Below are positions 19,826 to 41,574 of a stretch of 64,000 nt of DNA, in pieces. The translations under genes were made by a program, and so were the position numbers. The notes beneath the pieces were generated by a model. The model saw only the letters and a list, made by a program, of their open reading frames with translations, ran no database searches and was not told the origin of the DNA. Position 1 is the stretch's first letter, and each line of letters opens with the position of its first letter. The DNA is from a bacterium (GTDB lineage Bacteria > Patescibacteriota > Minisyncoccia > Moranbacterales > UBA2206): positions 19,333 to 83,332 of the forward strand of contig JAJYKZ010000001.1 of NCBI GenBank assembly GCA_021788105.1, written 5' to 3'.

Positions 19826-19903
19826 TGTTATACAAAAAATAATGTGTTGTTTTAAAAATGAATAAATCTCTTAAAGAAATCTTAACAAAAGAGGAGGCTG
19901 AGG

Positions 19904-20879
19904 ATGAAAATAGGAGGAGTCGAATTTCATAACATATTCCTTCCTTCAGGAACTTTGAATTTTGAGAAGCAAGGTTGGCCGCATCATAAGCTGTATAAGC
20001 TCATTCCTGGATTTGGATACAAGAACGCCACCTTTGTCGCCAAAACGACGACGCTTCTTGAAAGACCTGGAAATATAGAATTGGATCCGGAAACATTAAT
20101 GCCCAAAAAAAATGTTTCCTGATTGTATTTATGTAAATTTCTGGAAGGCGCTTGTCATGAATGTAGTAAACCTGAGCGGCCCAGGTGCAAAAATTCTTTT
20201 TGAGAGAGGCAAATGGTTTGAGATTCTTGAAAACTTCTGGCTTTCTTTTATGACCATAGCAGAAACAAAAGAAGAGCGACTAAAAGAATTTCAAGATTTC
20301 ATAGATCTCTTAAAAAAATATTTGCCTTTTTTCAGAGCCAGGATCGGACTTAAAGTAAACATCACTTGTCCAAACACGGCGCACAACCTCAAGGAGATCG
20401 AGGATGAAGTCATGCATTTTTTAGAAATCGCCGCCAGACTGGGAATTCCCATTGGGATCAAAGTCAATATCTTCACTAGCACTAAAACAGTAAAAAGAAT
20501 TTTCAATGCCGGCCTTTGTGATGCAGTTTTCGTGTCTAACACGATCAGATGGGGAGAAATTTCCGAACGAATAAATTGGGAAAAGCTGTTTGGAAGAAAA
20601 GTATCACCTCTGAAAAAATATGGTGATAATGCTGGAGCCATGTCAGGCTGGCCCGCATTGCCGCTAGTAAAAGAGTGGGTCTCGGAGGCAAGAGGGATAG
20701 GAATCGACGGAATAATTATAGGAGGAAACGGAATATCTCGCAAAGAACACATAGATTTACTTTTTCCTCTCGTGGACGGATTCTCCATAGGTTCGGCCGG
20801 AATGGTTCGGCCGCATAGATTGCAAGGACTCATAAATTATGCGGATCAAAAAATTACAGAAAGAAACGGGAGAAACTAA
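19904..20879 (+). pseudogene. pyrD: Dihydroorotate dehydrogenase-like gene (class 1, catalytic Cys retained) interrupted by a frameshift in an A8 run at 20105..20112
   Basis: ORF 19904..20122 (GVEFHNIFLPSGT..VAKTTTLLERPGN) and ORF 20112..20879 (VVNLSGPG..NITCPNT..IIIGGNGI..GSAG) align to consecutive parts of DHODH. Removing one A joins them. Confidence 0.6.
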
Positions 20880-21947
20880 ATGAAAAACGAACCAGAAGAA
20901 ATTGTTCTTGAAAATCTCTTCTCACAACATTCGCATTTGCGAGAAGGAAAAATGCTTGATGCCACGGTGCCGGCCAATTCCCCCTATTCTCTGGTTGTCC
21001 AAATACCAAACCTTGCAAATCCGGTTGATTCAGGAAAACGGTTAAAAGAACATCAAACCGAAGTCCTGTCTCACGAGCCGAATTTTCAGATCGTATGGGG
21101 AATCATGATAACTAAAAGAACCACCCGCCAAGATATCAAAGATGCTTATCATCTTGGAGCTCGCTTTATTAAATACATCCCAGCAAAAACCTCTACTAAT
21201 TCTTCAGGTGGAATTGGAATAACTCTCGATGAACTGCCAAACCACTATGACAAATTCGAAGAGGGTTTCAAGCTCGGAATGGCATCCCTCAACCACATTG
21301 AGAGAGCCTATACCAAAGACGGCAAAGAAATCCCATACATATTCCGAGAAGAAAGAGCCATCGAAGATTTTGACCGACTGGTGCGCACCTTTCCAAGAGA
21401 AAAAATTAGGGCGGAACATGTCAGCACTCGTTCACTTATAGATTATATTGCCACTGCCCCAGCCAATGTTAAGGGCGGCTTTGCCATTCAGCATGCCAAA
21501 AAAACATATGTCGATGTTTTTCCAAGCTCAGGCAATATCATCTATGAAAACTTCTGTATGCCGGTCTTAAAAAATGAATACAACCGGCAAATGGTGGAAT
21601 GGGAAATGGCAAAAGGAAATCACAAAGACTTCCGTTATACCCCTGATGATGCATATCATCCATGGGGGAAAAAGCTCGAGAGCATTCCAGGATGTTTTCT
21701 TCCGCCTATCATTGCACTTCCGCTTCTGTGCCAAATCTTTGAGAAACACGGAGCACTGAATCGCCTACAGGAATTCGCTGGCATAACAAAAGGGGATGAA
21801 GAATTTTTCGGCATCCAAGCTGAAAAAAAGAAAAAGATTATAATGATAAATGAGACTTGGAGGGTTCCGGAAATAATCCACGGCACAGCCCCCTTCATGA
21901 AGGGAGAATTACTGAGCTGGAAAATAAAGGAGGTAATAGAGATATAA
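20880..21947 (+). CDS. pyrC: Dihydroorotase-like amidohydrolase (E. coli type II PyrC-like)
   Basis: FSQHSHLREGKMLDATVP...IPNLANPV parallels E. coli WHLHLRDGDMLKTVVP...MPNLAPPV. KYIPAKTSTNSSGGI parallels KLYPANATTNSSHGV. Confidence 0.65.
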   Translation: MKNEPEEIVLENLFSQHSHLREGKMLDATVPANSPYSLVVQIPNLANPVDSGKRLKEHQTEVLSHEPNFQIVWGIMITKRTTRQDIKDAYHLGARFIKYIPAKTSTNSSGGIGITLDELPNHYDKFEEGFKLGMASLNHIERAYTKDGKEIPYIFREERAIEDFDRLVRTFPREKIRAEHVSTRSLIDYIATAPANVKGGFAIQHAKKTYVDVFPSSGNIIYENFCMPVLKNEYNRQMVEWEMAKGNHKDFRYTPDDAYHPWGKKLESIPGCFLPPIIALPLLCQIFEKHGALNRLQEFAGITKGDEEFFGIQAEKKKKIIMINETWRVPEIIHGTAPFMKGELLSWKIKEVIEI

Positions 21948-21991
21948 ACACAAAAGGCTTCGCGCTAACAAGCACGGAGCCTTTTAAAATT

Positions 21992-22984
21992 CTACAACCC
22001 ATACCTCACCTTATTCGCCTGCTGTTGTTCATAACTTTTGGCATAAATCGTCTGGCCGGTTTTGGGATCGTTTAGAAAATAATCGTAATTGGAGTCGGTC
22101 GGATGAATCGATGCTTGAATCGAGCCGAGTCCCGGATTGGAAATCGGACCGGGCGGCAAACCTTTGTTGAGATACGTGTTGTACGGCGAAGCGGTTTCAA
22201 CGTCCTGCAAAGAATATTTTATTTTGGCAGTATCTAAAATATATGCGAGCGTCGAATCACATTGAAGCGCCTGGCCGTTTGACAAACGATTCCACAAAAT
22301 GCCGCTCACTATCGCCCGGTCTTCCGAAGTTTTTACCTCCATCTCCACGATGCTTGCCATCGTGATTATGTCATGGATGGACTTGTCATCTTTCGCGATG
22401 TCCGATCGCATTTGTTCATTAAGTTTCATATTGAAATTATCAATCATCCGCAAAACAATGTCTTTGGCTGTCGCATCCTTGGAAAAATAATAAGTATCGG
22501 GAAAAAGATAACCCTCCAAACTGTTTGCATTATTAAGATAACCGTAACGATTTTTAATGTCTTGCGGAGGACTGTCCACAATTTGCAAAAAACCGTTGCC
22601 GTCCAATCCATCAGCCGTGAGACGATCGGACATTTTTTTGCCGGTCCAGCCTTCCGGGAAAGTTATGATGATAAATTTTTCCGTACTGGTGATTGCTATG
22701 GCAATTTCCGGAATGGTCATATTGCCGCTAAGCTGGTACTTGCCGGGCAAAATCTTATTAGTGAGATTATGCGTTCGAAGATAGATGTAAAAATACCAGT
22801 TATTGGAAATCAATCCGTCATTTTGAAGACGTGAAGCAACTTCTGCATTTCCTTCTCCCTTATTGATCGTAAAAATTTCCTGATTTTTATTTTTACCATG
22901 GGAAAAATAAACTTGATAACGCAAATAAAAAAATCCCCCCGAAAGGGCAATGACCAGAGCAATAATTGTGATTATTTTTTTCAT
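21992..22984 (-). CDS. mltG: Endolytic murein transglycosylase MltG (YceG family)
   Basis: N-terminal TM, YceG-like domain, conserved LPPGPISNPG motif. Confidence 0.8.
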   Translation of the reverse strand: MKKIITIIALVIALSGGFFYLRYQVYFSHGKNKNQEIFTINKGEGNAEVASRLQNDGLISNNWYFYIYLRTHNLTNKILPGKYQLSGNMTIPEIAIAITSTEKFIIITFPEGWTGKKMSDRLTADGLDGNGFLQIVDSPPQDIKNRYGYLNNANSLEGYLFPDTYYFSKDATAKDIVLRMIDNFNMKLNEQMRSDIAKDDKSIHDIITMASIVEMEVKTSEDRAIVSGILWNRLSNGQALQCDSTLAYILDTAKIKYSLQDVETASPYNTYLNKGLPPGPISNPGLGSIQASIHPTDSNYDYFLNDPKTGQTIYAKSYEQQQANKVRYGL

Positions 22985-22987
22985 CTC

Positions 22988-23608
22988 TTAATTGGCAGGC
23001 GCCAGAGGAATAAAAGAAAATCCGGGAAAATTTTCTTCGCAAAATTCAGTTTCGCTTTTCTTTTCTAAATATACAATGCTGTTTCTGACAGGCATTACCA
23101 GTTTTCCTCCGATTTTCAATTGATCTTTGAAGGCCTGGGGAATTTCTTCCGTCGAGGCCGAACAGAGAATGCGATCGTACGGCGCTTTCTCCAAAAAACC
23201 TTCGTTTCCGTTCGCGCAATAAAACTCCGCTATTCCCTTTTTAATAAATTCAAAACGATTGACATGTTTTTTGGCATATTCCACTAAATCATCCACAAGA
23301 TCGATGGCAATCACCCTTCCCTTTTCTCCGACAATGTAGGACATAAGCGCAGTCGTCCAGCCCGATCCGCTTCCGACGTCCAAGATATTCTGTCCCTTCT
23401 GCGGATCAAGAAGTTCCAGCATAAAAGCCACCGTTGAAGGCTGGGAAATAGTTTGCCCATATCCGACCGGCAATTCGACATTCTTTTCCGCGCTTTCTTC
23501 AAAACCATTGGGAACAAATTCCAACCGGTCGATCGATGCGAACGCGTCGATGATCGCATCGGTCTTCAGATATCCGTTTCTTACCAATTCGTTTACGATC
23601 CTGCTCAT
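22988..23608 (-). CDS. pcm: Protein-L-isoaspartate O-methyltransferase
   Basis: GYGQTISQPSTVAFMLELL and SAM-binding ILDVGSGSGWTTALM. Confidence 0.85.
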   Translation of the reverse strand: MSRIVNELVRNGYLKTDAIIDAFASIDRLEFVPNGFEESAEKNVELPVGYGQTISQPSTVAFMLELLDPQKGQNILDVGSGSGWTTALMSYIVGEKGRVIAIDLVDDLVEYAKKHVNRFEFIKKGIAEFYCANGNEGFLEKAPYDRILCSASTEEIPQAFKDQLKIGGKLVMPVRNSIVYLEKKSETEFCEENFPGFSFIPLAPAN

Positions 23609-23613
23609 AGCAA

Positions 23614-24054
23614 TTACAATCCAATAACTTGAATTATTATGTCCCGCGTTCTTGAGCCGTCCATTTCAGCCAAAAATATGCTTTGCTTTTCAGTCAGAAG
23701 CAATTTTCCTTTTTCGATCGGGATAGTTTCGCTTATTCCCAAAAGAATACTTTTAGTGTGCGAATGGCCGTTGCTTCTTCCGTCAGAACTGCTGGCGCGG
23801 TTAAGTTCGAACAAATCATGGGAATAGCTGTCAGTAGCCGGGACCAAGCGATAAAGAACGCGCATAAAATCCTGAATGAGCATCGGCTCGTTATGATTCA
23901 CAACAATTGAGGCGGTCGTATGCGGAGAATAAACCAGCACTTGACCCTCCCGAATTCCGGAATTATGAATCACCTCTTCGACTTGGTCGGTTATATCAAC
24001 AAATTCAATTTGGCTTTTACTTTTTATGCTTATGTTTTGTTTGTGTATTTTCAT
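23614..24054 (-). CDS. YjbQ/UPF0047 family protein (secondary thiamine-phosphate synthase-like)
   Basis: VYSPHTTASIVVNHNEP...D is the YjbQ signature. Confidence 0.7.
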   Translation of the reverse strand: MKIHKQNISIKSKSQIEFVDITDQVEEVIHNSGIREGQVLVYSPHTTASIVVNHNEPMLIQDFMRVLYRLVPATDSYSHDLFELNRASSSDGRSNGHSHTKSILLGISETIPIEKGKLLLTEKQSIFLAEMDGSRTRDIIIQVIGL

Positions 24055-24059
24055 AAATT

Positions 24060-25181
24060 TTATTTTTTGAAGACTTCGGCAACCACTTTTGCAGCACGCA
24101 CATCGAGCGCGCTTACCACTATTTTATCAGCAGTCGGTTTTTTTATCAACTCGGCGATTGCTTTGGCTGCTTTCAATTTGTGCTGATCGGTAATTATTTT
24201 TGTCCGGCTGTCCAAGGCGCCTCGAAAAACTCCCGGAAAAGCCAGGACGTTGTTGAGTTGGTTGGGATAATCCGACCGGCCGGTCGCCACCACTTTCGCG
24301 CCGCCTTTTTTCGCTTCTTCCGGCATAATTTCCGGCGTTGGATTGCTCATCGCAAAAACAATCGCGTCTTTGTTCATGGTTTTTATATCCTCCGCTTTCA
24401 AAAGATTGGGCGCGGAAACTCCGATAAAAACATCCGCTCTCTTCAAAGCGTCGCGCAGCATGCCCATAACATTATGTATGTTAGTGAAATGGATCAGTTC
24501 TTGTTTAGCCACATTTAAACCGCCGCGTTCTTTATGGATAATGCCCTGACTATCGGCCAAAATAATATCCCGCGCGCCATATTTGTGGAGCAACTTAGTA
24601 ATAGCGATACCGGCCGCGCCGGCGCCCGAAATTACGATTTTAACTTTACCGATTTTTTTATTCACCACTTTCAGAGCATTGATGATTCCCGCCAGAACGA
24701 CAATGGCCGTGCCGTGCTGGTCATCATGAAAAACCGGAATGTCCAATTCTTTTTTCAAAGCCTCTTCTATTTCAAAACAGCGCGGCGCAGAAATATCTTC
24801 CAAATTAATCCCGCCGAAAGTCGGCGCGACATTTTTCACAATTGCAATAATTTCTTTCGGGTCTTGCGTGTTCAAAACCAGCGGAATGGCATCCACGCCA
24901 GCCAATTCTTTAAAAAGCAAAGCTTTTCCCTCCATCACCGGCAAGGCGCCTTCCGGGCCGATATTGCCCAAACCCAAAACGGCCGAACCATCGGAAATGA
25001 CTGCGACCGTGTTTTTGCGGATCGTGTATTCGAATGAAAGTTTTTTGTTTTTGGCGACCGCCTTGGAAACTTCCGCCACACCGGGCGTGTACAGAACTGG
25101 CAAAGTTTCTTTCGTTAATTTCTTTTTTGATTTAATTTCAATTTTTCCGCCGAGCTTTTTGGAAAGTTGCAGTGAGTTCAT
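24060..25181 (-). CDS. NAD(P)-dependent malic enzyme (short form)
   Basis: LPVLYTPGVAEV, GLGNIGPEGALPVMEGKALLFK, Rossmann ISGAGAAGIA. Confidence 0.8.
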   Translation of the reverse strand: MNSLQLSKKLGGKIEIKSKKKLTKETLPVLYTPGVAEVSKAVAKNKKLSFEYTIRKNTVAVISDGSAVLGLGNIGPEGALPVMEGKALLFKELAGVDAIPLVLNTQDPKEIIAIVKNVAPTFGGINLEDISAPRCFEIEEALKKELDIPVFHDDQHGTAIVVLAGIINALKVVNKKIGKVKIVISGAGAAGIAITKLLHKYGARDIILADSQGIIHKERGGLNVAKQELIHFTNIHNVMGMLRDALKRADVFIGVSAPNLLKAEDIKTMNKDAIVFAMSNPTPEIMPEEAKKGGAKVVATGRSDYPNQLNNVLAFPGVFRGALDSRTKIITDQHKLKAAKAIAELIKKPTADKIVVSALDVRAAKVVAEVFKK

Positions 25182-25183
25182 AA

Positions 25184-26113
25184 TTATTTTTTGCTCAATT
25201 TCAATTTCTTATACACACTTCCCGCTGCCACCGCGCCTTCCGCCACTGCCGTGATAATCTGGCGAAATTTGTTAGACCCGGTCGTAACGTCGCCGGAAGC
25301 GTAAACAAATTCCACATTGGTTGCTTGCGCTTGATCGACAATGATGTATTTTTGTTCGTCTAATTTAACTCCCAGATTTTGCGCCAAGACTACGCCCGGC
25401 ACCGATCCGATCTCGATGAATACCCCCTGCACATCCAACGTCTCGTCTTTAGGCGCATCCATTGATTCATACACGACTGCCGCCACTTTCTGATCTCCTT
25501 TAATTTCTTTTATATTTTTGCAACAACGTATTTCAATTTTTGAATTAGCCCTCATCTGATCTTCCCAGGACGGCTCCCAATTGGAAGTTTCACGATACAG
25601 AAGATAGACTTTTTCAGCAAATTCCGAAACATGAATGGCCGCAGTCGCCGCCGCGTCGCCGCCGCCGATGACAACTACGTCTTTGTTACGAAAAAACATT
25701 GCGTCACAAGTGGCGCAGTAAGAAATTCCCTTGCCGATGAATTTATCTTCTCCAGGAATGTTCATCTTGCGAGGCTTCATACCCAAAGACAAAATAATAC
25801 TCTTGGATTTATAAGTGTCTTTTCCAGCTACCACTTCAAACACATCGCCGTTTTTTAATATTGAAGACACGTCCGATTCAACAATCTGCGCTCCCAAATG
25901 ATGCGCATGGTGCTGAAATTTCTCCATTAAAGTTTTTCCGGGAATGGAAATTTCTCCCGCCCAGTTTTCGATTTCAGCAGCTTCCGTCACCTGACCGCCT
26001 ATTTCATTGCCGATCAAAAGATGATCCAGCTTATAGCGCGAAGCATAAATTGAAGCGCCCAATCCGGACGGTCCGGCGCCGACGATGATGAGATCATAAA
26101 TTGTGTTTTCCAT
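25184..26113 (-). CDS. trxB: Thioredoxin-disulfide reductase
   Basis: FAD motif DLIIVGAGPSG; redox-active CATCD; NADPH motif VVIGGGDAA. Confidence 0.85.
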   Translation of the reverse strand: MENTIYDLIIVGAGPSGLGASIYASRYKLDHLLIGNEIGGQVTEAAEIENWAGEISIPGKTLMEKFQHHAHHLGAQIVESDVSSILKNGDVFEVVAGKDTYKSKSIILSLGMKPRKMNIPGEDKFIGKGISYCATCDAMFFRNKDVVVIGGGDAAATAAIHVSEFAEKVYLLYRETSNWEPSWEDQMRANSKIEIRCCKNIKEIKGDQKVAAVVYESMDAPKDETLDVQGVFIEIGSVPGVVLAQNLGVKLDEQKYIIVDQAQATNVEFVYASGDVTTGSNKFRQIITAVAEGAVAAGSVYKKLKLSKK

Positions 26114-26157
26114 AGTTTTTTAATTTTAAGTTGTTGCACTATAAATTATATAACTAT

Positions 26158-27102
26158 TTACAAAGTTGTGATAGGCCGAGACTGAGTAATATAAAATTTT
26201 CCTTTTTCCAATGCCCACTCAATATCTTGCGGTTTTTTGTAATGCTTCTCGATATTTAAACAAATCTTAGCCATAGCTTTAATTTGAGTGTCAGTCAATT
26301 TCTGCTTTTCCTGTTTTGAAATTGGAACTTTAGTTTCCACAATACCCTTCGCACCATTCTTCACAATCATCATTTCCTGCTGAGAAATATTTTTATCTAA
26401 AATAGAATTATCTTGCTTACGAACAATATAAGTATCAGGGGTTATTTTTCCGCCCACAATCGCCTCTCCCAATCCATATCCTGCTTCAATTACCATTTGT
26501 TTCCGATCGCGTGTCACCGGATGAGCTGTAAAAGAAATTCCAGAAATTTCCGATTGGACCATTTTTTGAACAACAACAGCGACAGAAACTTTTTGATCAT
26601 GCAGTTTTTTCTCAAACCGATAAAAAATTGCCCGGGGAGTAAAAAGCGATGACCAGCAGAGTTTGACCGACTCCAATAAATTTTTCTTAGTAACATTCAA
26701 ATAAGTTTCCAATTCACCGGCCCAAGAAGCCACCGACGAGTCTTCTGCCGTAGCAGATGAGCGAACAGCTACCAAAGGAGCTTTCAGAATTGAAAATTCT
26801 TTTGTTATTTCCTGCGCAATATCTTTGGGAAATTTTGCGTCCAAAATCAAATCTCTAATTTTCTCCGAAGCTTTCTCAACTGAATTGATGTTATCCGGTT
26901 TTACCTTTTTTATCACAGCTTCTATTTCCACATCTAAATCAGTTTCTTCTAAAAATCTATCAAAAGCCGATGCCAGCACAACAAAACCCGGCGGCACCGG
27001 AATTCCCGCCTTGGTCATTTCGCCAAGCGATGCACCTTTTCCTCCCGCAATGTCGACGTTTTTATAGGTCAGTTGTTTGAATGTTTTGATAAATTCAGGC
27101 AT
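26158..27102 (-). CDS. Stand-alone ATP-grasp nucleotide-binding protein (PPDK_N-like)
   Basis: GGKGASLGEM, VAVRSSATAEDSSVASWAGELETYLNV, VAVVVQKMVQSEISGISFT, DIEWA. No His domain or TIM barrel follows. Confidence 0.75.
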   Translation of the reverse strand: MPEFIKTFKQLTYKNVDIAGGKGASLGEMTKAGIPVPPGFVVLASAFDRFLEETDLDVEIEAVIKKVKPDNINSVEKASEKIRDLILDAKFPKDIAQEITKEFSILKAPLVAVRSSATAEDSSVASWAGELETYLNVTKKNLLESVKLCWSSLFTPRAIFYRFEKKLHDQKVSVAVVVQKMVQSEISGISFTAHPVTRDRKQMVIEAGYGLGEAIVGGKITPDTYIVRKQDNSILDKNISQQEMMIVKNGAKGIVETKVPISKQEKQKLTDTQIKAMAKICLNIEKHYKKPQDIEWALEKGKFYITQSRPITTL

Positions 27103-27114
27103 ACAAATTTAAAC

Positions 27115-28488
27115 TTAATTTTTTAAAATCTTCACAATACCTTTATTTGCATCAACCTCGACCAAATCACCATCTTTCAAAATTTTCGTTGCAATTTTAG
27201 TTCCAATGATACAGGGCTTATTCCATTCCCTCGCAACAATTGCTGCATGACAAGTTATACCCCCTTCGTCCGTTACAAATGCCACTGCTTTTTTCATGCA
27301 TGGCATAAAGTCAGGAGTAGTCATAGTTGTTATTAAAATATCTCCTTCTGAAACCTTACTTTGCTCACTGGCCTTTAAAATAATCCTTACCGTACCTTTA
27401 ATTTTTCCGCTGCAAGCTACCATTCCTTTCAATTCTTTAATATCGTGAATTGCAGATATGTTAAGTGAATTTATTTTTTGAATTAATTTTTTTCCAAATA
27501 ATAATTCAATTTTATTATCATGAAGCAAAAAACCATGACCCAATTTCCTTTCTTTTATAATTTTATTCGAAACTTTTATATTTTTTTCAAACAAATCTTT
27601 TATTTCACTCAAAAGATAGTATCCTAGGTCATTTTCTTTTACTAAAAATTTCTTGCCTATTTCATTCCAAAGAGTCTCTAGGTAAAATAGAGCTTCGTAA
27701 AGCTTTTCTGTTCGATAATTTCTAAAATAAACGAATTCTTTCATTAAATTCATGAACTCCTCTTCTTTTTTGTCAAATTTAAATCTATTCTTTATTGTTC
27801 CGTATTTTTTATTGTTCAAATCTAATTCCTCTAGCTTTTTTTTGAAAAAATTAAAATCATAACCTTTCGAGAACGGCTCCCTATACCCTAAAAAAGAATA
27901 TTTATTTAAATGTTTTTTTAGAGCTTGATCTAAATCTACTTCAGAATAATTATGATTTTTAATTCTTCTAAGATCAATTTCCTCCAAAACAGGAGAATTC
28001 ATTTTTTCAGGCTTGGAAATATTTATAAGAATACCATTCATTTCGCTTTCTTCAATCCCCTTTTTCTTTAAAATATCAATCAGTTTATCTTCAATAGATT
28101 TTGCTAATGGGTGTGTTTGTGGTAAAAAAACTAATAAATTCTTCAGAAGCTCTACGCTAATCCAAAAATCATTTTCAAGCTTACTAAGATTAGTTTTATT
28201 AATTTTTAATTTTCGCGAAAAACTTATTAACTTTTCTCCATTAACATATCCATTCTTGGTAAAATCCCAGAAAAAATTAAGCGGTTTGTTTTGATACTTT
28301 TTAGCAACAGCTTCCATCCAATTCATATCAAAATAAAAATCACCATCAATAATTTCTAAATTTTTAACATAGTCATTAAATTTAGCAATTTTTTTAAATC
28401 TCTTTTCGTCATTCCAAGACCTGATTAAAATATCATCTGTCAAAACAGCGTGCTTTCGTGATAATAATTTTTGAAAATTTGGTTTCAT
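27115..28488 (-). CDS. Paralog A: divergent N-terminal domain plus C-terminal PEP-utilizers mobile (phosphohistidine swivel) domain
   Basis: C-terminus ...LKGMVACSGKIKGTVRII...[48 protein letters not shown]...[19 protein letters not shown]. Confidence 0.7.
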   Translation of the reverse strand: MKPNFQKLLSRKHAVLTDDILIRSWNDEKRFKKIAKFNDYVKNLEIIDGDFYFDMNWMEAVAKKYQNKPLNFFWDFTKNGYVNGEKLISFSRKLKINKTNLSKLENDFWISVELLKNLLVFLPQTHPLAKSIEDKLIDILKKKGIEESEMNGILINISKPEKMNSPVLEEIDLRRIKNHNYSEVDLDQALKKHLNKYSFLGYREPFSKGYDFNFFKKKLEELDLNNKKYGTIKNRFKFDKKEEEFMNLMKEFVYFRNYRTEKLYEALFYLETLWNEIGKKFLVKENDLGYYLLSEIKDLFEKNIKVSNKIIKERKLGHGFLLHDNKIELLFGKKLIQKINSLNISAIHDIKELKGMVACSGKIKGTVRIILKASEQSKVSEGDILITTMTTPDFMPCMKKAVAFVTDEGGITCHAAIVAREWNKPCIIGTKIATKILKDGDLVEVDANKGIVKILKN

Positions 28489-28495
28489 GTTTTAC

Positions 28496-30058: not shown

Positions 30059-30059
30059 T

Positions 30060-30890: not shown

Positions 30891-31911
30891 TTCTTTTTCC
30901 GGAAATAACGTCTGCTATCGTTATTTCTTTTAGCAAATTACCGCTTTTCGTAAATATATTTTTATCTGGTTCAACATCCAAATCATATTCTTTTCCTCTT
31001 AAACGAAATTTTATTGAAACTTTGCCATTTTTTTCTTTTCTTTTGATTGAAATGTTGACTGCCTCATTGGGCTCAAAAGCTCCTCCCATTTTTTCCAAAA
31101 TATCTGACCCGTCAGAACAAACCGGATCTTCCTCAATTTGATCTTGCAACAAATAAACGAGAAAAGGTTCGATAAATCCGGCATGATTGACGTCATATAC
31201 AAATACCTTAGAATCATTTTTTAACCTGTTTGAAGCTTCAACATATTTTTTAAAATGTTCTGTCATTCTTAATACAACTTCCAAAACAGAGATTCCGTCT
31301 TCCTTCACTTGTTTGTCTTTAAAATTTTTAATGATAGATTCTTCCTTATCAGAATTTTCTTTTGATCCATCAGTTTTATCAATGATTTTTTTCAAATAAT
31401 CGAGATCGTCCATCAAATATTTTATCCACAATGCAACTCCCGCGTTTTCTTTTTTCAATGACGAGCTGGCACTTTTTTCAGTAGCCTCTTTATATGCTTG
31501 TCGTATTTGCGGAGATATTAAATTAACATCTTTTGATTCACTTGATTCATTCATTATTTTTTTCACGATCACACCTTCTTTACTGATAACTCCCGTTGGC
31601 AGATCCCTGACTCGCAAATTGACTTTTTTCTTTTCGTCGTCCATAACAAAAGTGTCATTACTTTCAAAACCTTCTTCTATTTTCATTCCTGTATGAACAG
31701 CGCGTTCGATCGGAGTAGTTCTTACCGCAACAACATCATACCCGCTCAAATCCTTACCCTTTGCTAATTCGACAACTTTTTCAGGATTAGCTATCCTTGA
31801 TGCATTAAAAGAACCTTTCTCGCCATGACGAGCAAGTTCCACATCTATTTCTACATTGTTTCCAAACTCTCCCGATTCCTTTTGCTCAATTCTTTCAAAT
31901 GGATTTTTCAT
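30877..31911 (-). CDS. Possible histidine-phosphatase-superfamily protein (RHG motif)
   Basis: VELARHGEKGSFN resembles the PGM-family RHGE signature. Otherwise a divergent K/E-rich sequence. Confidence 0.4.
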   Translation of the reverse strand: MKNPFERIEQKESGEFGNNVEIDVELARHGEKGSFNASRIANPEKVVELAKGKDLSGYDVVAVRTTPIERAVHTGMKIEEGFESNDTFVMDDEKKKVNLRVRDLPTGVISKEGVIVKKIMNESSESKDVNLISPQIRQAYKEATEKSASSSLKKENAGVALWIKYLMDDLDYLKKIIDKTDGSKENSDKEESIIKNFKDKQVKEDGISVLEVVLRMTEHFKKYVEASNRLKNDSKVFVYDVNHAGFIEPFLVYLLQDQIEEDPVCSDGSDILEKMGGAFEPNEAVNISIKRKEKNGKVSIKFRLRGKEYDLDVEPDKNIFTKSGNLLKEITIADVISGKRNGGN

Positions 31912-31921
31912 ATTTTTAATT

Positions 31922-32209
31922 TTAATTATTATAACTTTTTAAAATCTTCACAATCCCCTTATTTGCATCCACTTCAACCAAATCACCATCTTTCAAAACT
32001 TTAGTGGCAATCCTTGTTCCAATTATACATGGCTTTTTTAGTTCGCGCGAGACAATTGCCGCATGACAAGTTATACCGCCTTCGTCGGCTGACTGATTCA
32101 GTTTCTTATTTTTAGATTTTATGAACTTAACCAGTCCTTGCGCCCAAAATCCTTCCAGTATTAAGCTAAGGTCCCGTTCATATTCTTTTGTCAGATGAAT
32201 TTTTGGCAT
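31922..32209 (-). pseudogene. Remnant of a paralog: isolated phosphohistidine swivel domain (95 aa) lacking the N-terminal domain
   Basis: ...[51 protein letters not shown] is near-identical to the paralog C-termini. The upstream region is non-homologous. Confidence 0.5.
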
Positions 32210-32211
32210 GA

Positions 32212-32676
32212 TTAAATTTTTTCCGATATCATTTCCAAAACCGCCTGAGTCGCTTCTGCCCCTTTGTTATTTTTCCCTCGCGACCGGTCTTGGGCTTGTT
32301 TGAGATTATTTGTTGTTATCACTCCAAATCCGATTGGAATATCATATTTCAGCATTACATCCATAATTCCCCGCGCGGCTTCATTAGATACAAAATAGTA
32401 ATGATCAGTGCCACCCTTGATTACGCAACCTAAAGCAATCAGTGCATCAAACTTTTTGGTTTTAGCTGCTTTTTGACAAGCCAATGGAATTTCAAAAGCG
32501 CCTGGAACCCAAACTGTTTTGATGTTGGATTTTTTAACTTTATTTTTTTCCAGAACATCCATCGTGCCCTGAAGCATCCCTCCGGTGATGTCGGAATTAA
32601 ATTTTGAAACCACGATTCCGATTTTCAATTTGCTCCCGTCGATTGTTTCTTTTTTTTGGTTATTTTTTCTTTGCAT
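32212..32676 (-). CDS. ribH: 6,7-dimethyl-8-ribityllumazine synthase
   Basis: [14 protein letters not shown]...[12 protein letters not shown]...[15 protein letters not shown]. Confidence 0.85.
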
Positions 32677-33263
32677 TATTTTGTTCTTAATAACTTATTT
32701 AAATATTTCGCCAAAACGTCTGTTTCGATATTGACATAATTTCCAACAGAAATTTTTCCCAAATTGGTATTATCCAAAGTATAACTCACTAGAGAAACCG
32801 TAAACCAATCTTTGCCAGTATCAACAACGGTGAGACTAATGCCGTCAATTGCAATTGATCCTTTTTCCGCCACAAACTTCATAAACTCTTTCGAAATTTT
32901 AATTTTAATAATCTCAGATTCCTTCACCTTTTGGATTTCAATTACCTCTCCGGTCGTATCCACATGACCTTGCACAATGTGCCCATCTAGAAGATCGCTC
33001 ATTTTCAAACTTTTTTCTAAATTAACCGCTGTTCCTTTTTGAAAATTGCCTGCAGTAGTTTTTTTAATTGTTTCCGGCATATATTCAACTTCAAAAATGC
33101 TTTTGGAAAAATTTTTAACAGTCGAACAGACCCCATTTATGGCAATGCTTTCACCTTTCCAAACTTTCCAACCTTTGGGAATTTTTATAGACACAAAAAA
33201 ACTCCCTTTTTTTTCGGATATTTTTTCCACCGCTGAAACTTTTTGAATAATTCCTGTAAACAT
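32676..33263 (-). CDS. ribE: Riboflavin synthase alpha subunit
   Basis: MFTGIIQKV...GESIAINGVCSTV duplicated lumazine-binding motif. Confidence 0.85.
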   Translation of the reverse strand: MFTGIIQKVSAVEKISEKKGSFFVSIKIPKGWKVWKGESIAINGVCSTVKNFSKSIFEVEYMPETIKKTTAGNFQKGTAVNLEKSLKMSDLLDGHIVQGHVDTTGEVIEIQKVKESEIIKIKISKEFMKFVAEKGSIAIDGISLTVVDTGKDWFTVSLVSYTLDNTNLGKISVGNYVNIETDVLAKYLNKLLRTK

Positions 33264-33278
33264 TTTGTAATTTGAAAC

Positions 33279-33608
33279 TTAAAATTTTAAATTTGAAATT
33301 TTTTTAATATCTTTAGCAATTTGTTCTTTTAGTTTTTCCTCGCTTTCAAATTTCATGACATCTCTGATTTTTTGACCGAGCTCTATCCGTATTTCCATGC
33401 CGTAAATATCCTGGTTAAAATTAAATAAATAAGCTTCTAAAAGATTTTGGAAAACAAATATAGCTGCCGCATATTCTTTTCCTTCAACAATCACACTTCC
33501 TCCATAAATTCCACTAGCAATATCTTCCTTCAGTTCTACATTGGCCGTTGGAAATCCCAGTTCCCTGCCTCTTGCTTTACCCTTAATGACTTTACCAGAT
33601 ATTTTCAT
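33279..33608 (-). CDS. Riboflavin kinase (stand-alone flavokinase domain)
   Basis: GKARGRELGFPTANV is the riboflavin kinase signature. Confidence 0.7.
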   Translation of the reverse strand: MKISGKVIKGKARGRELGFPTANVELKEDIASGIYGGSVIVEGKEYAAAIFVFQNLLEAYLFNFNQDIYGMEIRIELGQKIRDVMKFESEEKLKEQIAKDIKKISNLKF

Positions 33609-33610
33609 TT

Positions 33611-35054
33611 TTAATTTTTCTTTAGAATTTTTACGATCCCTTTATTAGCATCAACTTCCACTAAATCACCGTCTTTTAAAACTTTGGTAGCAACCCTTGT
33701 TCCAATTATACCTGGCTCACCAAATTCCCGCGAGACAATCGCTGCGTGACAAGTAATGCCTCCGTCATCAGTAACAATGGCAGCTGCTTTTTTCATTCCA
33801 AGAAGATGTTCCGGCCGAGTCATGGGCGCAACCAAAATATCGCCCTCCTTCACTTTATCAATATTTTTCGCCGACATGATAATTTTTATTCTCCCTTTCG
33901 CAATTCCAAGCGATGCCACCATGCCTTTTATTTCCTTAACATTGCCCGTTTCGATATGGGAAACTTTCCTGGTAAATTTTTCAGATTCATATCCAGAAAT
34001 GATGCTAACTATTTCACCATTTCGATATACAAATAGAGATGATTTTTTTCTTTCTTCCAAGTCTGCTATATTAAATTTCCCTTCCAGAATACCTTTTATT
34101 TCTTTGGAATTTATATAACGCAATATATTATAACTAATTCCAGTGCGTTTTGAAATTTCCGCTAAAATTTTTGATTGCAAAGTCACAAAGGTTAAAGTGT
34201 ATATCTTTCTCTGATCCTGCCATTTTACAAATATTTCCGTAAGCTTGGAAATTGCTTTGATTTCCGGATTAAATTTATATTTTTTAAATAATTTTTCTTT
34301 GGCTTCTTTATTGCTTTTTAAAATATTATTCCTTGTTTTTTTCGGTTTTGATTTTTGCAAGTTCTTTTTTTGCATCATGTCGGGTGTATTTTTTGTATCC
34401 GGCATAGCTTGATTTTATCCAGGCATATTTTAAAATATGAAACTTCAATGCCGTTTCAAGATCTTTTCCTTTCTTGCTCTTCAACTTTTTCAAATCGGTT
34501 ATTTCTTCGTTTATAAAAGAAGGATTGACTGGTGCGCTCAGAACAGAAAATATTTCAGGATAGTTATTAATTTTGTTTTTTTCACAAAAATCTTTGATCA
34601 AACCATCAAATCTTTTGTCAGCATAAAACATAAAACCATCAAGAAACCCGGGCATAGAAATTTTGCGGTAATATTTATAAATTTCTTCAGCCCAACCAAT
34701 CAAAACTTCATTATCCAAACCGGAGATATCAGCTTCGTACCGATCGTAAAATTTGGCCATCATTGAATCAAAATTTTCCAACCAGCTTCTGTGCAGATTG
34801 GTGATGACTTTTTCATTTTTTAAAAAAATTTTTACTATAGCAGCACCTATTAATTGATGATCTGAATATAGAGACATCCAGTCGCCCTCCGACTCCTTAT
34901 AATAGCAAAGATTCTTTTTATAAACCGGGATCGTACTATTGTATAATTTTTTGGTGAAACCGTGAGCGGTCATTTCCGTAAAAGCCGGACAACCGTCATA
35001 ATGTTCGATATTCCACTTTTCTTTGGCTAAATTTTTCAGGTTTATTTTTTTCAT
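33611..35054 (-). pseudogene. Paralog C split into two ORFs (34326..35054 N-part; 33611..34405 C-part with swivel domain) by a frameshift at an A7/T7 run
   Basis: The two ORFs overlap by 80 nt and together align over the full length of paralogs D and E. Deleting one A in the run at 34336..34342 joins ...KIKTEK to TRNNILKSNKEAKEK... Confidence 0.6.
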
Positions 35055-35056
35055 TT

Positions 35057-36529
35057 TTATTTAACAACTTTAACAGTTCCCTTATTTACATCTAACTCAA
35101 CCAGATCTCCATCTTTTATTAATTGAGTAGCGGTTTTGGTACCAATTATACACGGCTTTCCCATTTCGCGCGATACAATGGCTGCATGACAAGCAATTCC
35201 TCCCTCATCAGTAATTATGGCCTTGGCAATTCTCATCAAAGGAACCCATTCCGGACGAGTCATTGAAGTCACCAAAATCTCTCCATTCTTAAAAAAGTCT
35301 TTTTTTGTATTCATTACAACTTTTGCACGTCCAATAATTTTTTGTTCCATTCCTTTACTGGCAACCATTCCTTTTAAATCTCTATTTTTTATTTCTGTAG
35401 CAGCTTTCAATATTTCCTTAGCATCTTTTCCAAAAAACACTACCGGTTTTTTCTTTCTTTCAAAATCAAGGAAAACTCCTTTTCTCCTCGATCGGATTTC
35501 TTTTTCCTCTATTCTTTTTCCGGTTCGAATAAAATTTTCAATTTCAACTACCGTGCACATATTCAAATATTCATAATCAATATCAAATTTTCTGCAAATA
35601 GCTTCAAAAAAATTCCAAAGGTAGTGCAAATGTTCCAACATTCCCTTTTTGCGTTGGTCAATCCAATATATGACCTTGCTGGCAAAATAAAGATCTCTCT
35701 TATCTTCACTAGACAATTTCAAATCTTTGTATTTTTTTAAATGCACTTTTCCGCTACTTTTCAAGTTTTTTAATTCTTTCTCTATTTCTTCCAAAGAATG
35801 TTTTTTTAATTCGTTTTTAATATCTTTCAATACGGTCTCCTGATTAATTATCGTCGTTCGGCAAAAATCAGTTTTTATCCAATAATAATTATATGAATAA
35901 TTATTAATTTTATTTTTAATTTCTCTGTTATTGGAATATTCTATGACAATTTCAAAAAAAGCCTCCCTCTCTTTGCTGAATACAGATTTTTTCTCAGGAT
36001 GAGCCAACTCATGAACAATTTCTCTAGCTGACTCAATTTCCATTTTATGCCGTTTTGCAAATCTTGGAACAATAACAGTTTCAATAACATGGCCTTTTTC
36101 TTCTCCAAAAGAAGCATATTGCCACCATTTGAATGCCGTTTCAGTTAGCTGTTTATACAAATCAACGATTTCGTTATTGCTGAAATCTTCGATTTTCTTA
36201 TTACTAATTCCCTTCCAAATATTTTCAAATTTATCGATAATTTTTTGATGATTTTTTATTTTTTGGTCTAAAGATTTTGGATTTTTCAGATAGTCATTCC
36301 AAATCTTTAATCCGATTTTATCAATATTGTCCTTACTTATGAATTGATAATGCGGCTCATAATTATCATATCCCAAATAGCAAAAAATTGGAGAAAAATT
36401 TACTTTATGAACAGTATTGGAATTAGCATATGCGCCGTAAGCCAGATCGCAAATAAACAAAAAAGCGTGAGCTCGCTGTATATCCAACTCATTCTCTTTT
36501 AGATAGGTTACGACTTCTTTTCTGTTCAT
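35057..36529 (-). CDS. Paralog D: divergent N-terminal domain plus C-terminal phosphohistidine swivel domain
   Basis: ...LKGMVASKGMEQKIIGRAKVV...[48 protein letters not shown]...DGDLVELDVNKGTVKVVK. Confidence 0.7.
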   Translation of the reverse strand: MNRKEVVTYLKENELDIQRAHAFLFICDLAYGAYANSNTVHKVNFSPIFCYLGYDNYEPHYQFISKDNIDKIGLKIWNDYLKNPKSLDQKIKNHQKIIDKFENIWKGISNKKIEDFSNNEIVDLYKQLTETAFKWWQYASFGEEKGHVIETVIVPRFAKRHKMEIESAREIVHELAHPEKKSVFSKEREAFFEIVIEYSNNREIKNKINNYSYNYYWIKTDFCRTTIINQETVLKDIKNELKKHSLEEIEKELKNLKSSGKVHLKKYKDLKLSSEDKRDLYFASKVIYWIDQRKKGMLEHLHYLWNFFEAICRKFDIDYEYLNMCTVVEIENFIRTGKRIEEKEIRSRRKGVFLDFERKKKPVVFFGKDAKEILKAATEIKNRDLKGMVASKGMEQKIIGRAKVVMNTKKDFFKNGEILVTSMTRPEWVPLMRIAKAIITDEGGIACHAAIVSREMGKPCIIGTKTATQLIKDGDLVELDVNKGTVKVVK

Positions 36530-37989
36530 TTATTTAAAATTTTAATTATTCCTTTATTGGCATCTACCTCCACAGTATCGCCGTCTTTTAAAACTTTAGT
36601 GGCAATTTTTGTTCCGACTATTCCCGGAATTCCAAGCTCTCTGGAAACTATTGCTGCATGACAAGTCATACCGCCCTCATCTGTAACAACGGCACAAGAT
36701 TTTTTGAGTGCTACAATAAAGTCAGGCGTGGTCATTGTGGTTACAAGCACTTCTCCATTTTTTATTTTATCCATATTTTTTGATCCGATAATGATTCTAA
36801 CCCGACCCTTGACCACTCCGCGATTCACAACCAATCCCTTGATTTCTTTAATATCTTTTTTTATCTTATTGTTTAAATAAGGAGTGGCTATTTTCTTCGC
36901 CTTCGATCCCGAAACATATCTTATTTCTTCCGGCGGACGATATGCGGCGACAAAATCATCCTTTCTTGATTCTATTTCACTTCCGCTTAACTTTTTATTC
37001 TTCATAACCAAATCTTCCAATTCCGCTATAACATAAAAATGAAGATCGTCAAAATCCAATTCGAACCGCCTTGAAATTTCTTTCAAGAATAAGTCAACAA
37101 TATAATTATTTTTAAAAATATAAGACTTTCTAAAATCCTGCCACCAAATACAAAAAGATAACCTTTGACTTATTTTTAAAGTTTCATACGGCAAATTAAA
37201 TTCCCGAATAACTTTTTTCTTGTGAATAATCGCTTCTTTTTTTATTTTTTCTATTTCCTCAATTTTTCTTTTAGCATCTTTCATAGAAATGACACCCAAT
37301 CTTTTTCTAAAATAACTGACCGGTAATATTCTTGTGTTATGATAACTGTTCAGCATCCAGAAATATTTTTGCTGATGCGATTTCAGTTTTTCTTCCAAGG
37401 ATTTTTTATGTTTTATATTTTTCAGAGATAACAGGTCTATTTCTTCTTTTTGATAGAAAGAAAAATCCTCCGGAGCCGAAAGCCTTTCCAATGCGTAATG
37501 AAAATCTTCTTCTTTTAAAAATTTTTGTAAAATATCACTCAATATTTTTTCCCCTCCCCAATTCGCAACTTCCGGCAAAGATCCGATATTCCAAAATTCT
37601 TTCCCAGCCAAACTATTCCAATTTTGAAATAATTGAAAAAATTCTTTGTCAGATAGTAATTTCAGATCGGTTTTCGAGATTTTTTCCGCCGAAGCTTCGA
37701 AATTTTTTATAAGCTTTTCCCACTTCGCATAATTCAATTTAAATAACTTATCATCCAAAATATGCTTTTTAAAAAGAGCTTCGCCATGAAAACGGAGCTC
37801 TTCATAATCAACAATAACGGTTGCCATTTCTTTGGCATAAAAGACTAGAGCAGCCGGCCAACCCGGAGAAAAATATTTGGCAAATTCAAAAAATCCTCCA
37901 AACCAATAATCTGGGAAAATCGGACGACCATCAGAAGGTCCCCAACGAAAAAGTTCTTTTTTTGGATTAATTAAAGTTTTAATTTCCAT
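36526..37989 (-). CDS. Paralog E: divergent N-terminal domain plus C-terminal phosphohistidine swivel domain
   Basis: ...IKGLVVNRGVVKGRVRII...[48 protein letters not shown]...[19 protein letters not shown]. Confidence 0.7.
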   Translation of the reverse strand: MEIKTLINPKKELFRWGPSDGRPIFPDYWFGGFFEFAKYFSPGWPAALVFYAKEMATVIVDYEELRFHGEALFKKHILDDKLFKLNYAKWEKLIKNFEASAEKISKTDLKLLSDKEFFQLFQNWNSLAGKEFWNIGSLPEVANWGGEKILSDILQKFLKEEDFHYALERLSAPEDFSFYQKEEIDLLSLKNIKHKKSLEEKLKSHQQKYFWMLNSYHNTRILPVSYFRKRLGVISMKDAKRKIEEIEKIKKEAIIHKKKVIREFNLPYETLKISQRLSFCIWWQDFRKSYIFKNNYIVDLFLKEISRRFELDFDDLHFYVIAELEDLVMKNKKLSGSEIESRKDDFVAAYRPPEEIRYVSGSKAKKIATPYLNNKIKKDIKEIKGLVVNRGVVKGRVRIIIGSKNMDKIKNGEVLVTTMTTPDFIVALKKSCAVVTDEGGMTCHAAIVSRELGIPGIVGTKIATKVLKDGDTVEVDANKGIIKILNK

Positions 37990-38596
37990 TTTCTGATGAA
38001 TATTTTTTGTCTATCCACTCCTTTGCAATTTCCTTAAACTCCTTATAAAAAAATAATTTTAGCATATTTTTTAAAACTGTTAGCAACTCTTTTTCATTTG
38101 GGTAAATTTTTTTTATATTTTTTATTCTTTTTTCATTATATCTATCTAAAGAATCTATATCGTGAAAAATTCTCTTATTTTCAGTGTTGTAAATTTTTTT
38201 AAGATCCTCGCCGGTTTTTAGCTGATCATAATCGTGTACGCTAATCATGTCAACAATTTCTTTTCTCTTCTTATTTTCGTAGCCAACCGACTTCAAGATA
38301 TCATCGGCAATCTTGGCACCTGTAAGCATATGCACCAGCTTTCCATTGGTAATCTTTTCAGGTCCGGTGACATATTTAAAATGTTCCGGCAAAATTGCAG
38401 AATGTCCAATATCATGCATCATGGCTACTGGGATTAAAATTTCATAATCTAGCTTAAGTTTTCCTTTGTAATTCAAAATTACTTTAATAACCTCTTCCGC
38501 GTGTTCAAAATCTCCCAATCTTCCTTTCTTCAAAAGCGGTCTGCACCTTTTCCAAATCTTTAGATATTTGCTAGATAGTTCCATATTATTTTTCAA
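37979..38596 (-). CDS. HD-domain phosphohydrolase
   Basis: H...AMMHDIGHS...D is the HD motif. Confidence 0.6.
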   Translation of the reverse strand: MKNNMELSSKYLKIWKRCRPLLKKGRLGDFEHAEEVIKVILNYKGKLKLDYEILIPVAMMHDIGHSAILPEHFKYVTGPEKITNGKLVHMLTGAKIADDILKSVGYENKKRKEIVDMISVHDYDQLKTGEDLKKIYNTENKRIFHDIDSLDRYNEKRIKNIKKIYPNEKELLTVLKNMLKLFFYKEFKEIAKEWIDKKYSSENGN

Positions 38597-40078
38597 CTTT
38601 TATAACCTCTCCTTTTCCTGCATCTATCTCTAGCATATCGCCATCCAAAATGATCTTGGTAGCAATTTTTGTGCCTATCACACAGGGTTTTTTCATTTCC
38701 CTGGAAACAATCGCTGCATGAGAAGTTATGCCACCCTCATCGGTTACTATAGCTGCAGCTCTTTGCATAGCGATTATCAAATCCGGGTTGGTAGCTCGAC
38801 TTACCAAAATTTCACCCTTCTTAATTTTTCCTATTTCATTTCTCGAATTTATGATTCGAGCAATACCAGTGACCCTTCCGGCATACGCACAATTGCCTTT
38901 TATCACCTTTGTTACTGTTTCGATTTCGGGTTTAATAAATTTTGAATATTTTTTACTATCTCCAATCCTTATAATACTCACTGCATCAGATTCTACTACA
39001 GAAATGCACCCCTCACTAAAACGTGTCTCTATATTATTTCGCATTTTTCTAGTGAGCTTTCTAGGATCCGTCAAATATATTCTTATTTCATCTTTAGTTA
39101 TGAATCTTGTTTGTTCCAAAGAAAAACAGAGTCGATTTGATATTTCTTTTAAAATAGGTTCGAAACAATAATTAGAATAGATTAAGAATTCTTTCCGATA
39201 GCCTTTCAAAAAAATCATCACACCTATTTTATTTAACAAAGAAATAACATTATTATCCAGTCTTAACCTTTTTTGCAATTTCTTTTTCTTTTGTTCTATC
39301 TCTTTTTTATACGCCCTTATTTCTTTGATTTTTAAGACAGGATCCTTAATTATTTTTAAATTATTTTCTAAAATTTCAGTTATATCCTGTTTGCTCCATG
39401 CGGGTCCAATGTAATAATATGCCAACCATCCGAATTTTTTAAGATGATTTTCTAGAAGGCTAGCTATTTGCTTGTTTTTTTCCAATTTTTAATTCTTTTA
39501 TTCTGGATAACCGATTGAATTTTATATAATTCAAGCTCGTGTTCCCTTTGTTTAGTTTTTTCCTCCGGTGTAGTTAACACGCTCATATATTCTTTTATTC
39601 TTGGTTCTTCTCCGATCCGTTCTTTTATTTTTTTCTCCGCGATATCAAAAATAGAAACACTCCCCATATCGACAAGGTTGGGAATCCACGCGTACGCTCT
39701 TAAGTCAATCGTTATTTTTTCAAATTTATCATAATAGCTTACAAGTTGCTTGTTTGATAATTTTTTAGGATCAATTTTTAATAAACTGTCAGAAAATTTT
39801 TCCAACCCTTGGCAACGCTCTATCATCCCTTTTTTTATTTTGCGATAAAAATTATTATCATTAATCAATTTGCTTTGTGCAATGTCAGAAATATTCTTCC
39901 AAGACTTTTCATTTGCATACATTATCATATTAGTCTTGTCATAAAAACAAACAACCTGATCGCAACTTTTTCCCAAAAGTTTTCTCACAGATGAGGTGGC
40001 AGCCATATCCATCAAATAAATAGGAAAAAAACTCACATGTTTGCCTTCGAAAATTTTAATTAAACTTCCTTGATTCAT
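38586..40078 (-). pseudogene. Paralog F split into two ORFs (39464..40078 N-part; 38586..39485 C-part with canonical [13 protein letters not shown] swivel domain) by a frameshift at an A7/T7 run
   Basis: The ORFs overlap by 22 nt. Inserting one A in the run at 39475..39481 joins ...IKNWKK to NKQIASLLENH... The C-part begins with TTG only in the ORF track. Confidence 0.6.
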
Positions 40079-40088
40079 TTACAAGTAA

Positions 40089-40403
40089 TTAAATTTTATT
40101 CAATTCCTCCTTCAAACTTTCTTTTGCCTGCACACCGATAAATTCCTTCACGATTTTTCCTTCTTTAAAAATTTTCATCGTCGGAATGGACATAATGCCG
40201 AATTTGGAAGCCGTTTCCGAATTTTCATCGACATTTATTTTTCCGATTTTCACCTTGTCCCCCATTTCCTGTGCCAACTCCTCCACAATCGGTCCCATCA
40301 TTAAACATGGTCCGCACCAGGGCGCCCAAAAATCCACAAACACCGGTTTGTCACTTTTTAGAACTTCTTGATCAAAGTTTTGATCGGTAAATTCCATTGC
40401 CAT
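40089..40403 (-). CDS. trxA: Thioredoxin
   Basis: FWAPWCGPC active site; ~104 aa. Confidence 0.85.
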   Translation of the reverse strand: MAMEFTDQNFDQEVLKSDKPVFVDFWAPWCGPCLMMGPIVEELAQEMGDKVKIGKINVDENSETASKFGIMSIPTMKIFKEGKIVKEFIGVQAKESLKEELNKI

Positions 40404-41553: not shown

Positions 41554-41574
41554 GTGATTATAAATTATAAAATT

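Follow-up and report, generated by a model that had tools for sequence, protein, structure and literature searches.

The 64,000-nucleotide stretch of contig JAJYKZ010000001.1 (assembly GCA_021788105.1) analysed here, from a tiny-celled bacterium of the Patescibacteria and called the window throughout, carries three genes whose reading frames are interrupted: a pyrD-like gene on the forward strand and two members, paralogs C and F, of a six-gene family (A–F) on the reverse strand. A preliminary description of this DNA had paired the open reading frames (ORFs) 19904..20122/20112..20879 (+), 35054..34326/34405..33611 (−) and 40078..39464/39485..38586 (−) as the two pieces of each gene, and all three pairs are present as described, as are the runs to which it assigned the breaks, A8 at 20105..20112, T7 at 34336..34342 and T7 at 39475..39481. 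The pieces and lesions are as follows.

19904..20122, + strand: upstream piece of the pyrD-like gene, 72 amino acids (aa); its product also occurs in NCBI, ENA and Logan assemblies
20105..20112, + strand: A8 run, the pyrD-like lesion, with one A more than the intact state by comparison with the ortholog at locus L005
20112..20879, + strand: downstream piece of the pyrD-like gene, 255 aa, carrying NITCPNT; 42/42 downstream columns invariant in 10 homologs are kept
33611..34405, − strand: downstream piece of paralog C, an ORF with a match to the swivel domain
33712..33722, − strand: three clustered non-synonymous differences in paralog C, window REFGEPGIIG versus RELGKPCIIG in other assemblies
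34326..35054, − strand: upstream piece of paralog C, 242 aa; its product occurs only in the source contig of the window
34327..34330, − strand: where paralog C is in fact broken; one base is inserted and, on the coding strand, a G is changed to A, giving an in-frame TAA, from alignment of the window with contigs L001 and L002
34336..34342, − strand: A7 run (coding strand) in paralog C, not the lesion; unchanged and in frame in the intact allele, whose protein P0243 reads TEKNKDDILK
38586..39485, − strand: downstream piece of paralog F, 299 aa, with the swivel domain of phosphoenolpyruvate (PEP)-utilizers; 86/87 invariant columns are kept
39464..40078, − strand: upstream piece of paralog F, 204 aa, an ORF whose product is on record
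39475..39481, − strand: A7 run (coding strand), the paralog F lesion, with one A fewer than the A8 inferred for the intact gene from ortholog alignment

Removal of one A from the pyrD-like gene or from C, or addition of one A to F, yields single ORFs of 324, 480 and 497 aa, respectively. The corrections of −1, −1 and +1 given in the preliminary description thus restore all three frames and have the right direction for the pyrD-like gene and F; in C the frame is regained although the lesion is not in the T7 run, because the run falls in a short stretch that is open in both frames. The stretch in which both frames are open spans just a few codons around the run in the pyrD-like gene and in F. 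The ATG at 20112 that starts the downstream pyrD-like ORF precedes the upstream stop, TGA at 20120, and the TTG at 39485 that starts the downstream F ORF precedes the upstream stop, TAG at 39466.

Exact-product look-ups retrieved the same strain from ENA (ERZ27233565, contig k141_197629, 58.9 kb) and from Logan contigs of SRR13170411. These contigs (L001 and L002) jointly cover positions 14880..46529 of the window (31.6 kb), over which they are 100% identical to it except at five positions, all in paralog C. The 77 A/T runs of at least 7 nucleotides in the compared span are all equal in length, those of F and the pyrD-like gene included. Gene calls in both assemblies split F (204 + 299 aa) and the pyrD-like gene (72 + 255 aa) as in the window and give C as one gene of 480 aa. 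NCBI, ENA and Logan all list the split products of both genes (F1, F2, pyrD1 and pyrD2). The split product C1 (242 aa) is listed by NCBI alone, where it comes from the 90.5-kb source contig; C as an intact protein of 480 aa is listed by ENA and Logan. The equal run lengths at F and the pyrD-like gene argue against assembler error and for real frameshift alleles, with the limit that the agreement is between three consensus assemblies, which hide minority alleles and whose read sets may be shared. Of the two alternatives offered for all three genes by the preliminary description, homopolymer errors or pseudogenes, neither fits all of them: F and the pyrD-like gene are best explained as real frameshift alleles on which three assemblies agree, and C as a variant or an error. 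Since the assemblies disagree at C only, C alone among the three is a candidate assembly error or strain variant.

More than 170 homologs of the pyrD-like product, a clade widespread in Patescibacteria, are single proteins of ~320 aa. The closest, P0002 (locus L005; 65% identity), is intact and syntenic and has A7 at the same codons: its DNA, cct-aaaaaaa-tg, encodes ...DPITLMPKKMFSDC..., whereas the window reads ccc-aaaaaaaa-tg (A8), and both give LMPKKMF. Judged by this ortholog, the pyrD-like break is a run-length change from A7 to A8. Otherwise the gene is well preserved. It keeps 14/14 upstream and all downstream columns that are invariant in the family (56/56 in total), a retention that exceeds that of the intact ortholog P0002. 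The residues N152, C155 and N157 of the NITCPNT motif are invariant across the family alignment, in which N-I-T-C-P-N is conserved. The presence of this motif had been taken to speak against long-standing decay, and the argument extends to the remaining invariant residues of both the pyrD-like gene (56/56) and F (125/128). No shifted pyrD-like ortholog was found among the relatives compared.

The identity of the pyrD-like product is less direct. The window protein alone gave no Pfam match and no PDB match (below threshold); it and P0002 both diverge so far that neither, taken singly, passes the PF01180 threshold. PF01180 is matched by 9 of the 11 aligned homologs, and the family profile matches DHODH 1B (1ep1) with an E-value of 1e-16. 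The product appears to belong to a divergent Patescibacteria clade of DHODH-like proteins, for which the label pyrD-like is acceptable and the enzymatic function putative. Directly behind the gene follows a conserved gene of ~355 aa without a Pfam match (window 19904..21947, + strand, for the pair; 6001..8024 in L005).

Paralog F with one A added contains ...KNWKKNKQIASLL... and aligns without gaps to nine intact orthologs (52–61% identity, ~498 aa) across ...KNWKKNKQIASLLENH..., with W199 invariant. The intact run is therefore taken to be A8, which would be the longest run within the F gene, and the F break is, on this alignment, a run-length change from A8 to A7. Of the family-invariant columns F keeps 39/41 upstream and 125/128 in total, like the intact orthologs. 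About 14 F orthologs are intact besides the shifted ones described below; a search with the N-terminal piece of F returned only the three known N-terminal fragments and missed full-length orthologs, so that the number of intact orthologs is not reliably counted from it. Comparison with orthologous loci, which had been suggested as a check, thus found the >170 pyrD-like homologs and ~14 F orthologs uninterrupted and two F orthologs shifted at nearby sites.

In paralog C the lesion is of another kind. The coding strand of the intact allele reads ACC GAA AAA AAC AAG GAT GAT ATT TTA, compared to ACC GAA AAA AAC AAG GAA TAA TAT TT in the window. The extra base and the substitution, which leave the window with GGAATAATATT, lie 3–6 nucleotides (nt) downstream of the A7 run and create GAA-TAA. 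C is intact in L001 and L002 with the same A7 run, and encodes there the 480-aa protein P0243. The claim that all three breaks lie in A/T homopolymers therefore stands for the pyrD-like gene and F and falls for C, whose lesion at 34327..34330 is outside the run. Three single-nucleotide differences (L to F, K to E and C to G) lie within 11 nt of each other, ~600 nt past the lesion, in the conserved RELGKPCIIG. Gene conversion or cross-assembly with another paralog was considered as the source of the window variant and rejected, as no donor was found among the paralogs in the window: the closest copies, with 3–5 mismatches to the variant strings over 26 positions, are more similar to the other allele, and the sole longer match, one 12-mer at 16392..16403, is probably due to chance. 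The C break is contig-specific, either a strain or minor variant with two small complex mutations or a consensus error.

The two run-length lesions lie in DNA that is rich in such sites. The window contains 251 A/T runs of 6, 122 of 7 and 25 of 8 nt (147 of at least 7), and none of 9 or more. Markov simulations of order 3–6 predicted 10–38 runs of at least 9, and in 0/100 simulations were there none; given this deficit, long A/T runs appear to be selected against, with runs of 7–8 probably close to the limit of tolerance. The number of runs of 7 is, if anything, higher than expected. With 147 runs of at least 7 in the window, an indel in one of them reflects a known mutational bias rather than anything site-specific. 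Among ~130 coding runs of at least 7, two are broken, which does not look like the product of a homopolymer-error-prone read technology. When every A/T run of at least 7 in the window was changed by +1 or −1 and checked for ORF fusion, no further broken genes emerged; only the three known cases have long flanks. Two other candidates were rejected. At 45960..46335 the paired ORFs are separate small genes, of which the second has a start of its own (GGGAGG-ATG), and an apparent coding gap at 46.5–47.9 kb holds an intact murF-like ORF.

The preliminary description also noted that both paralog junctions sit within an identical 12-mer, and GAAAAAAACAAG does occur exactly twice in the window, once at each junction (0.11 copies expected; 0/100 shuffles with at least two). 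We reject a significance for it. The two copies are at non-homologous positions, ~69 alignment columns (~45 residues) apart, show no extended flanking similarity, and the C copy is in frame in the intact allele. Because of these positions, the shared 12-mer seems to be a chance product of low-GC coding DNA rich in Lys, Asn and Glu codons.

We found no sign of programmed frameshifting at the junctions: the orthologs are unshifted and a stimulatory structure is absent. The 75 nt folded downstream of each junction gave z-scores of −0.81, +0.71 and −0.15 relative to shuffles, with no stimulatory RNA fold. There is neither a Shine-Dalgarno-like motif nor GGAGG upstream of the pyrD-like or F junction, and searches of the window for RNA genes and recoding elements (ARAGORN, Rfam) returned two tRNAs and nothing else. 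Furthermore, the direction of repair differs between the two genes, as F needs a transcript with one additional A or a −1 ribosomal shift and the pyrD-like gene a transcript with one A fewer or a +1 shift.

Paralogs A–F are ~457–520 aa long, and all six end in PF00391, the swivel phosphohistidine domain of PEP-utilizers. An AlphaFold model of the intact F ortholog P0122 (mean predicted local distance difference test score, pLDDT, 91.8) has as its best match the rifampin phosphotransferase RPH-Lm (5fbt/5hv1; E-value 1e-14, TMq ~0.6). As this model matches rifampin phosphotransferase (RPH) best, the family is predicted to be RPH-like, with a swivel and a helical substrate-binding domain and with the ATP-grasp supplied in trans. 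The paralogs share with RPH the swivel phosphohistidine domain and the RPH-type helical domain; unlike in RPH, their ATP-grasp is encoded in trans.

A scan of species-representative genomes, together with a protein look-up, yielded F orthologs that are shifted in two other Patescibacteria species. In L009 (CALHIP010000001.1; 10001..11495) the shift is in an A8 run, tggtggaaaaac-aaaaaaaa-ttaat, which needs −1 and lies 3–5 codons from the F site of the window, in the opposite direction. In L087 (GCA_017973895.1; 2457..3975) it is in ACCACCCCCGGTGG, a C5/GG stretch ~25 codons upstream of the window site. Both orthologs have one frameshift each and no other decay, and their family-invariant residues are like those of intact genes. 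In the P0122 model the three F lesions fall within ~30 codons, in the loops 169–175 and 194–202 that flank helix 176–193. Across the wider family (~300 members, 79 genome loci) there are four frame switches outside the window that do not come from N gaps: that of L009 itself, one in L056 at an A10 run and two in L034. With four among ~300 members, we rejected a family-wide tendency to frameshift. Apparent frameshifts in L064 (~12022) and L071 (~4165) coincide with runs of N or ambiguous bases and are scaffolding artefacts, a caution for pseudogene counts in assembled genomes.

The simplest reading of the recurrence in F is a mutational hotspot, in which homopolymers would encode conserved Lys-rich and Thr-Thr-Pro loops of a dispensable gene. 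As the cases are few, there may be room for switching of F or for a tolerated split. That an F-type RPH-like gene is recurrently switched or split in this lineage, with the lesions in three species reflecting on/off switching or a two-piece enzyme, seems to us improbable.

Taken together, what the lesions are and where they lie, how far the assemblies agree, the intact orthologs and the absence of decay are observations that point to genes recently damaged or varied in an ordinary, already known way, for which no new mechanism is needed. The pyrD-like and F breaks are probably young, strain-specific slippage frameshifts, and C a contig-specific variant or a consensus error. The two frameshifts would be loss-of-function alleles and thus frameshift pseudogenes, a reading we base on their being recent, strain-specific and each the sole lesion in its gene. 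Replication slippage in A runs would have changed A7 to A8 in the pyrD-like gene and A8 to A7 in F; the A/T runs of 7–8 that crowd the genome would be the expected sites of such slippage, and the conserved Lys-rich loop of F a recurrent hotspot. Expression would be leaky at most, through occasional slippage of RNA polymerase or the ribosome, and by analogy a low-level leak is plausible for F more than for the pyrD-like gene. Several points weigh against this account. The perfect conservation of both halves of F and the pyrD-like gene also fits genes that still function, whether they are phase-variable, are rescued by slippage or make a split protein that works. For a compact genome, three breaks in 64 kb are many, and ~3/17 shifted F orthologs, compared to roughly 1% of the wider family, is more than simple random decay predicts. 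Finally, the ENA and Logan assemblies may share a read set with the deposited genome, and a systematic read-level error or a mixed population is then possible.

An explanation of all three breaks by errors of sequencing or assembly, with genes that are intact in the organism, we regard as unlikely. The intact C in two other assemblies of the strain means that one assembly or more must be in error or represent another variant there, and the lesions of F and the pyrD-like gene, which lack any other damage, are of just the type that homopolymer-sensitive platforms produce. Against errors throughout, the F and pyrD-like runs are equal in three assemblies, one of them represented by a short-read contig of MEGAHIT style (k141), the other runs of at least 7 in the compared 31.6 kb agree as well, few of the coding runs are broken, and the sharp absence of runs of at least 9 implies accurate run-length calls; the C lesion, for its part, is not a homopolymer miscount. 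About equally doubtful is the proposal that the tracts of F, the pyrD-like gene or both are functional switches, either through reversible changes in tract length (phase variation) or because slippage in transcription, or a ribosomal frameshift, on the A run yields full-length protein. It would explain why both halves of each gene are so well conserved, and F is one of an expanded set of accessory genes in a low-GC island, a kind of gene that is often phase-variable, with an ortholog in another species shifted the opposite way in an A run 3–5 codons off. Yet tract lengths are the same in all assemblies compared, the shift is not conserved in ~14 F orthologs and >170 pyrD-like homologs, and the junctions have no Shine-Dalgarno-like or hairpin stimulator. 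The tracts are also short (7–8), and efficient slippage and classical contingency tracts usually involve at least 9 nt. The direction of repair cuts both ways: F needs +1 A, the commonest product of transcription slippage in A/T runs, and the pyrD-like gene −1 A, the rarer error, as the transcriptomes of E. coli and Buchnera show mainly 1-nt insertions in A/T runs, at a frequency that climbs exponentially as runs lengthen, and fewer deletions (PMC5574713). Transcriptional frameshifting has been documented to rescue an interrupted gene in the case of tssM (PMC4256274), whereas no reading-frame rescue was detected in Buchnera transcriptomes (PMC5574713), and the third broken F ortholog is shifted in a C/G stretch, G/C runs not having been slippage-prone in the latter study.

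A tolerated gene fission, with both pieces translated, the downstream one by re-initiation at the overlapping start, and assembled into a working enzyme, is very unlikely in our estimation. The lesions of the F orthologs all fall in the two surface loops around one helix (residues 169–175 and 194–202 of the model), and the downstream ORFs start 11–29 nt before the upstream stop (the overlap in L087 is 29 nt); the family also already works with its ATP-grasp domain as a separate gene. Neither downstream start is preceded by a ribosome-binding site, F is cut inside one continuous helical domain and not between domains, and the cut in the pyrD-like gene removes the first ~68 residues of a TIM barrel. 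The loop location, moreover, is equally explained by the homopolymer-forming Lys-rich and Thr-Thr-Pro codons.

Among known systems, the slippage alleles preferred here resemble the poly(A)/poly(T) pseudogenes of Buchnera and Blochmannia, where single-base changes in A runs break well-conserved genes of a small AT-biased genome depleted of long runs. They differ in that the tracts here are 7–8 nt and the lesions are not common to related species; slippage-rescued endosymbiont tracts are longer, ~9–10 or more. Background on endosymbiont poly(A) frameshifts is given in PMC5574713 and PMC3017870. With phase-variable contingency genes, which switch by slipped-strand mispairing in homopolymers, the window shares a homopolymer frameshift in an expanded accessory family and an opposite shift in an ortholog at nearly the same place, but not tract-length polymorphism between assemblies; the tracts are short and mid-gene and most orthologs are unshifted. 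With programmed frameshifting and slippage (dnaX, IS elements, prfB, tssM) the window shares an A-rich slippery junction, here with both frames open over a very narrow span of 2 codons to either side, whereas its junctions are not conserved in orthologs, have no Shine-Dalgarno or hairpin stimulator and require different directions in different genes. The differences in C, five in one gene of 31.6 kb and resolved differently by the assemblies, are like strain-variant bubbles or consensus errors of metagenome-assembled genomes, except that the changes are complex (an insertion plus substitutions) and not a simple homopolymer miscount.

For annotation, the pyrD-like gene and F should be treated as frameshifted, probably inactive alleles, with no silent correction. 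Unless reads support its break, C is not to be listed among the pseudogenes of the organism, since it is intact in two assemblies. A frame break beside a homopolymer is not necessarily a homopolymer event; here a near-identical contig moved the C lesion by a few bases and changed its reading. For the candidate phyla radiation, the window adds a data point in which A/T runs are abundant up to 8 and absent beyond, and are sites where genes break.

The remaining paralogs and the separate ATP-grasp genes of the family lie in the same low-GC stretch at ~26–40 kb (0.31–0.36, compared to 0.40–0.47 elsewhere):

26158..27102, − strand: separate PPDK_N ATP-grasp gene (PF01326, domain match)
27115..28488, − strand: paralog A, PF00391 at the C-terminus
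28496..30058, − strand: paralog B, PF00391 at the C-terminus
30060..30890, − strand: separate PPDK_N ATP-grasp gene (PF01326, domain match)
35057..36529, − strand: paralog D, PF00391 at the C-terminus
36526..37989, − strand: paralog E, PF00391 at the C-terminus

This arrangement suggests that the island at 26158..40078 (−) encodes a modular Patescibacteria system for phosphotransfer to small molecules, in which ATP-grasp subunits are shared. The related locus L006 has eight paralogs and one ATP-grasp gene. A 95-aa ORF at 31922..32209 (−) consists of little beyond the C-terminus of a swivel domain, closely resembles the ends of paralogs A and C, and looks like the remnant of a seventh paralog; it is called as a gene in other assemblies too. 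Riboflavin-related genes, namely DMRL synthase, Lum_binding/riboflavin synthase and a flavokinase-domain protein, are found among the paralogs (32212..33608, 25184..26113 and 40089..40403, all −), and thioredoxin reductase and thioredoxin flank the island. The order F, HD-domain gene, paralog, flavokinase, Lum_binding is kept in L087.

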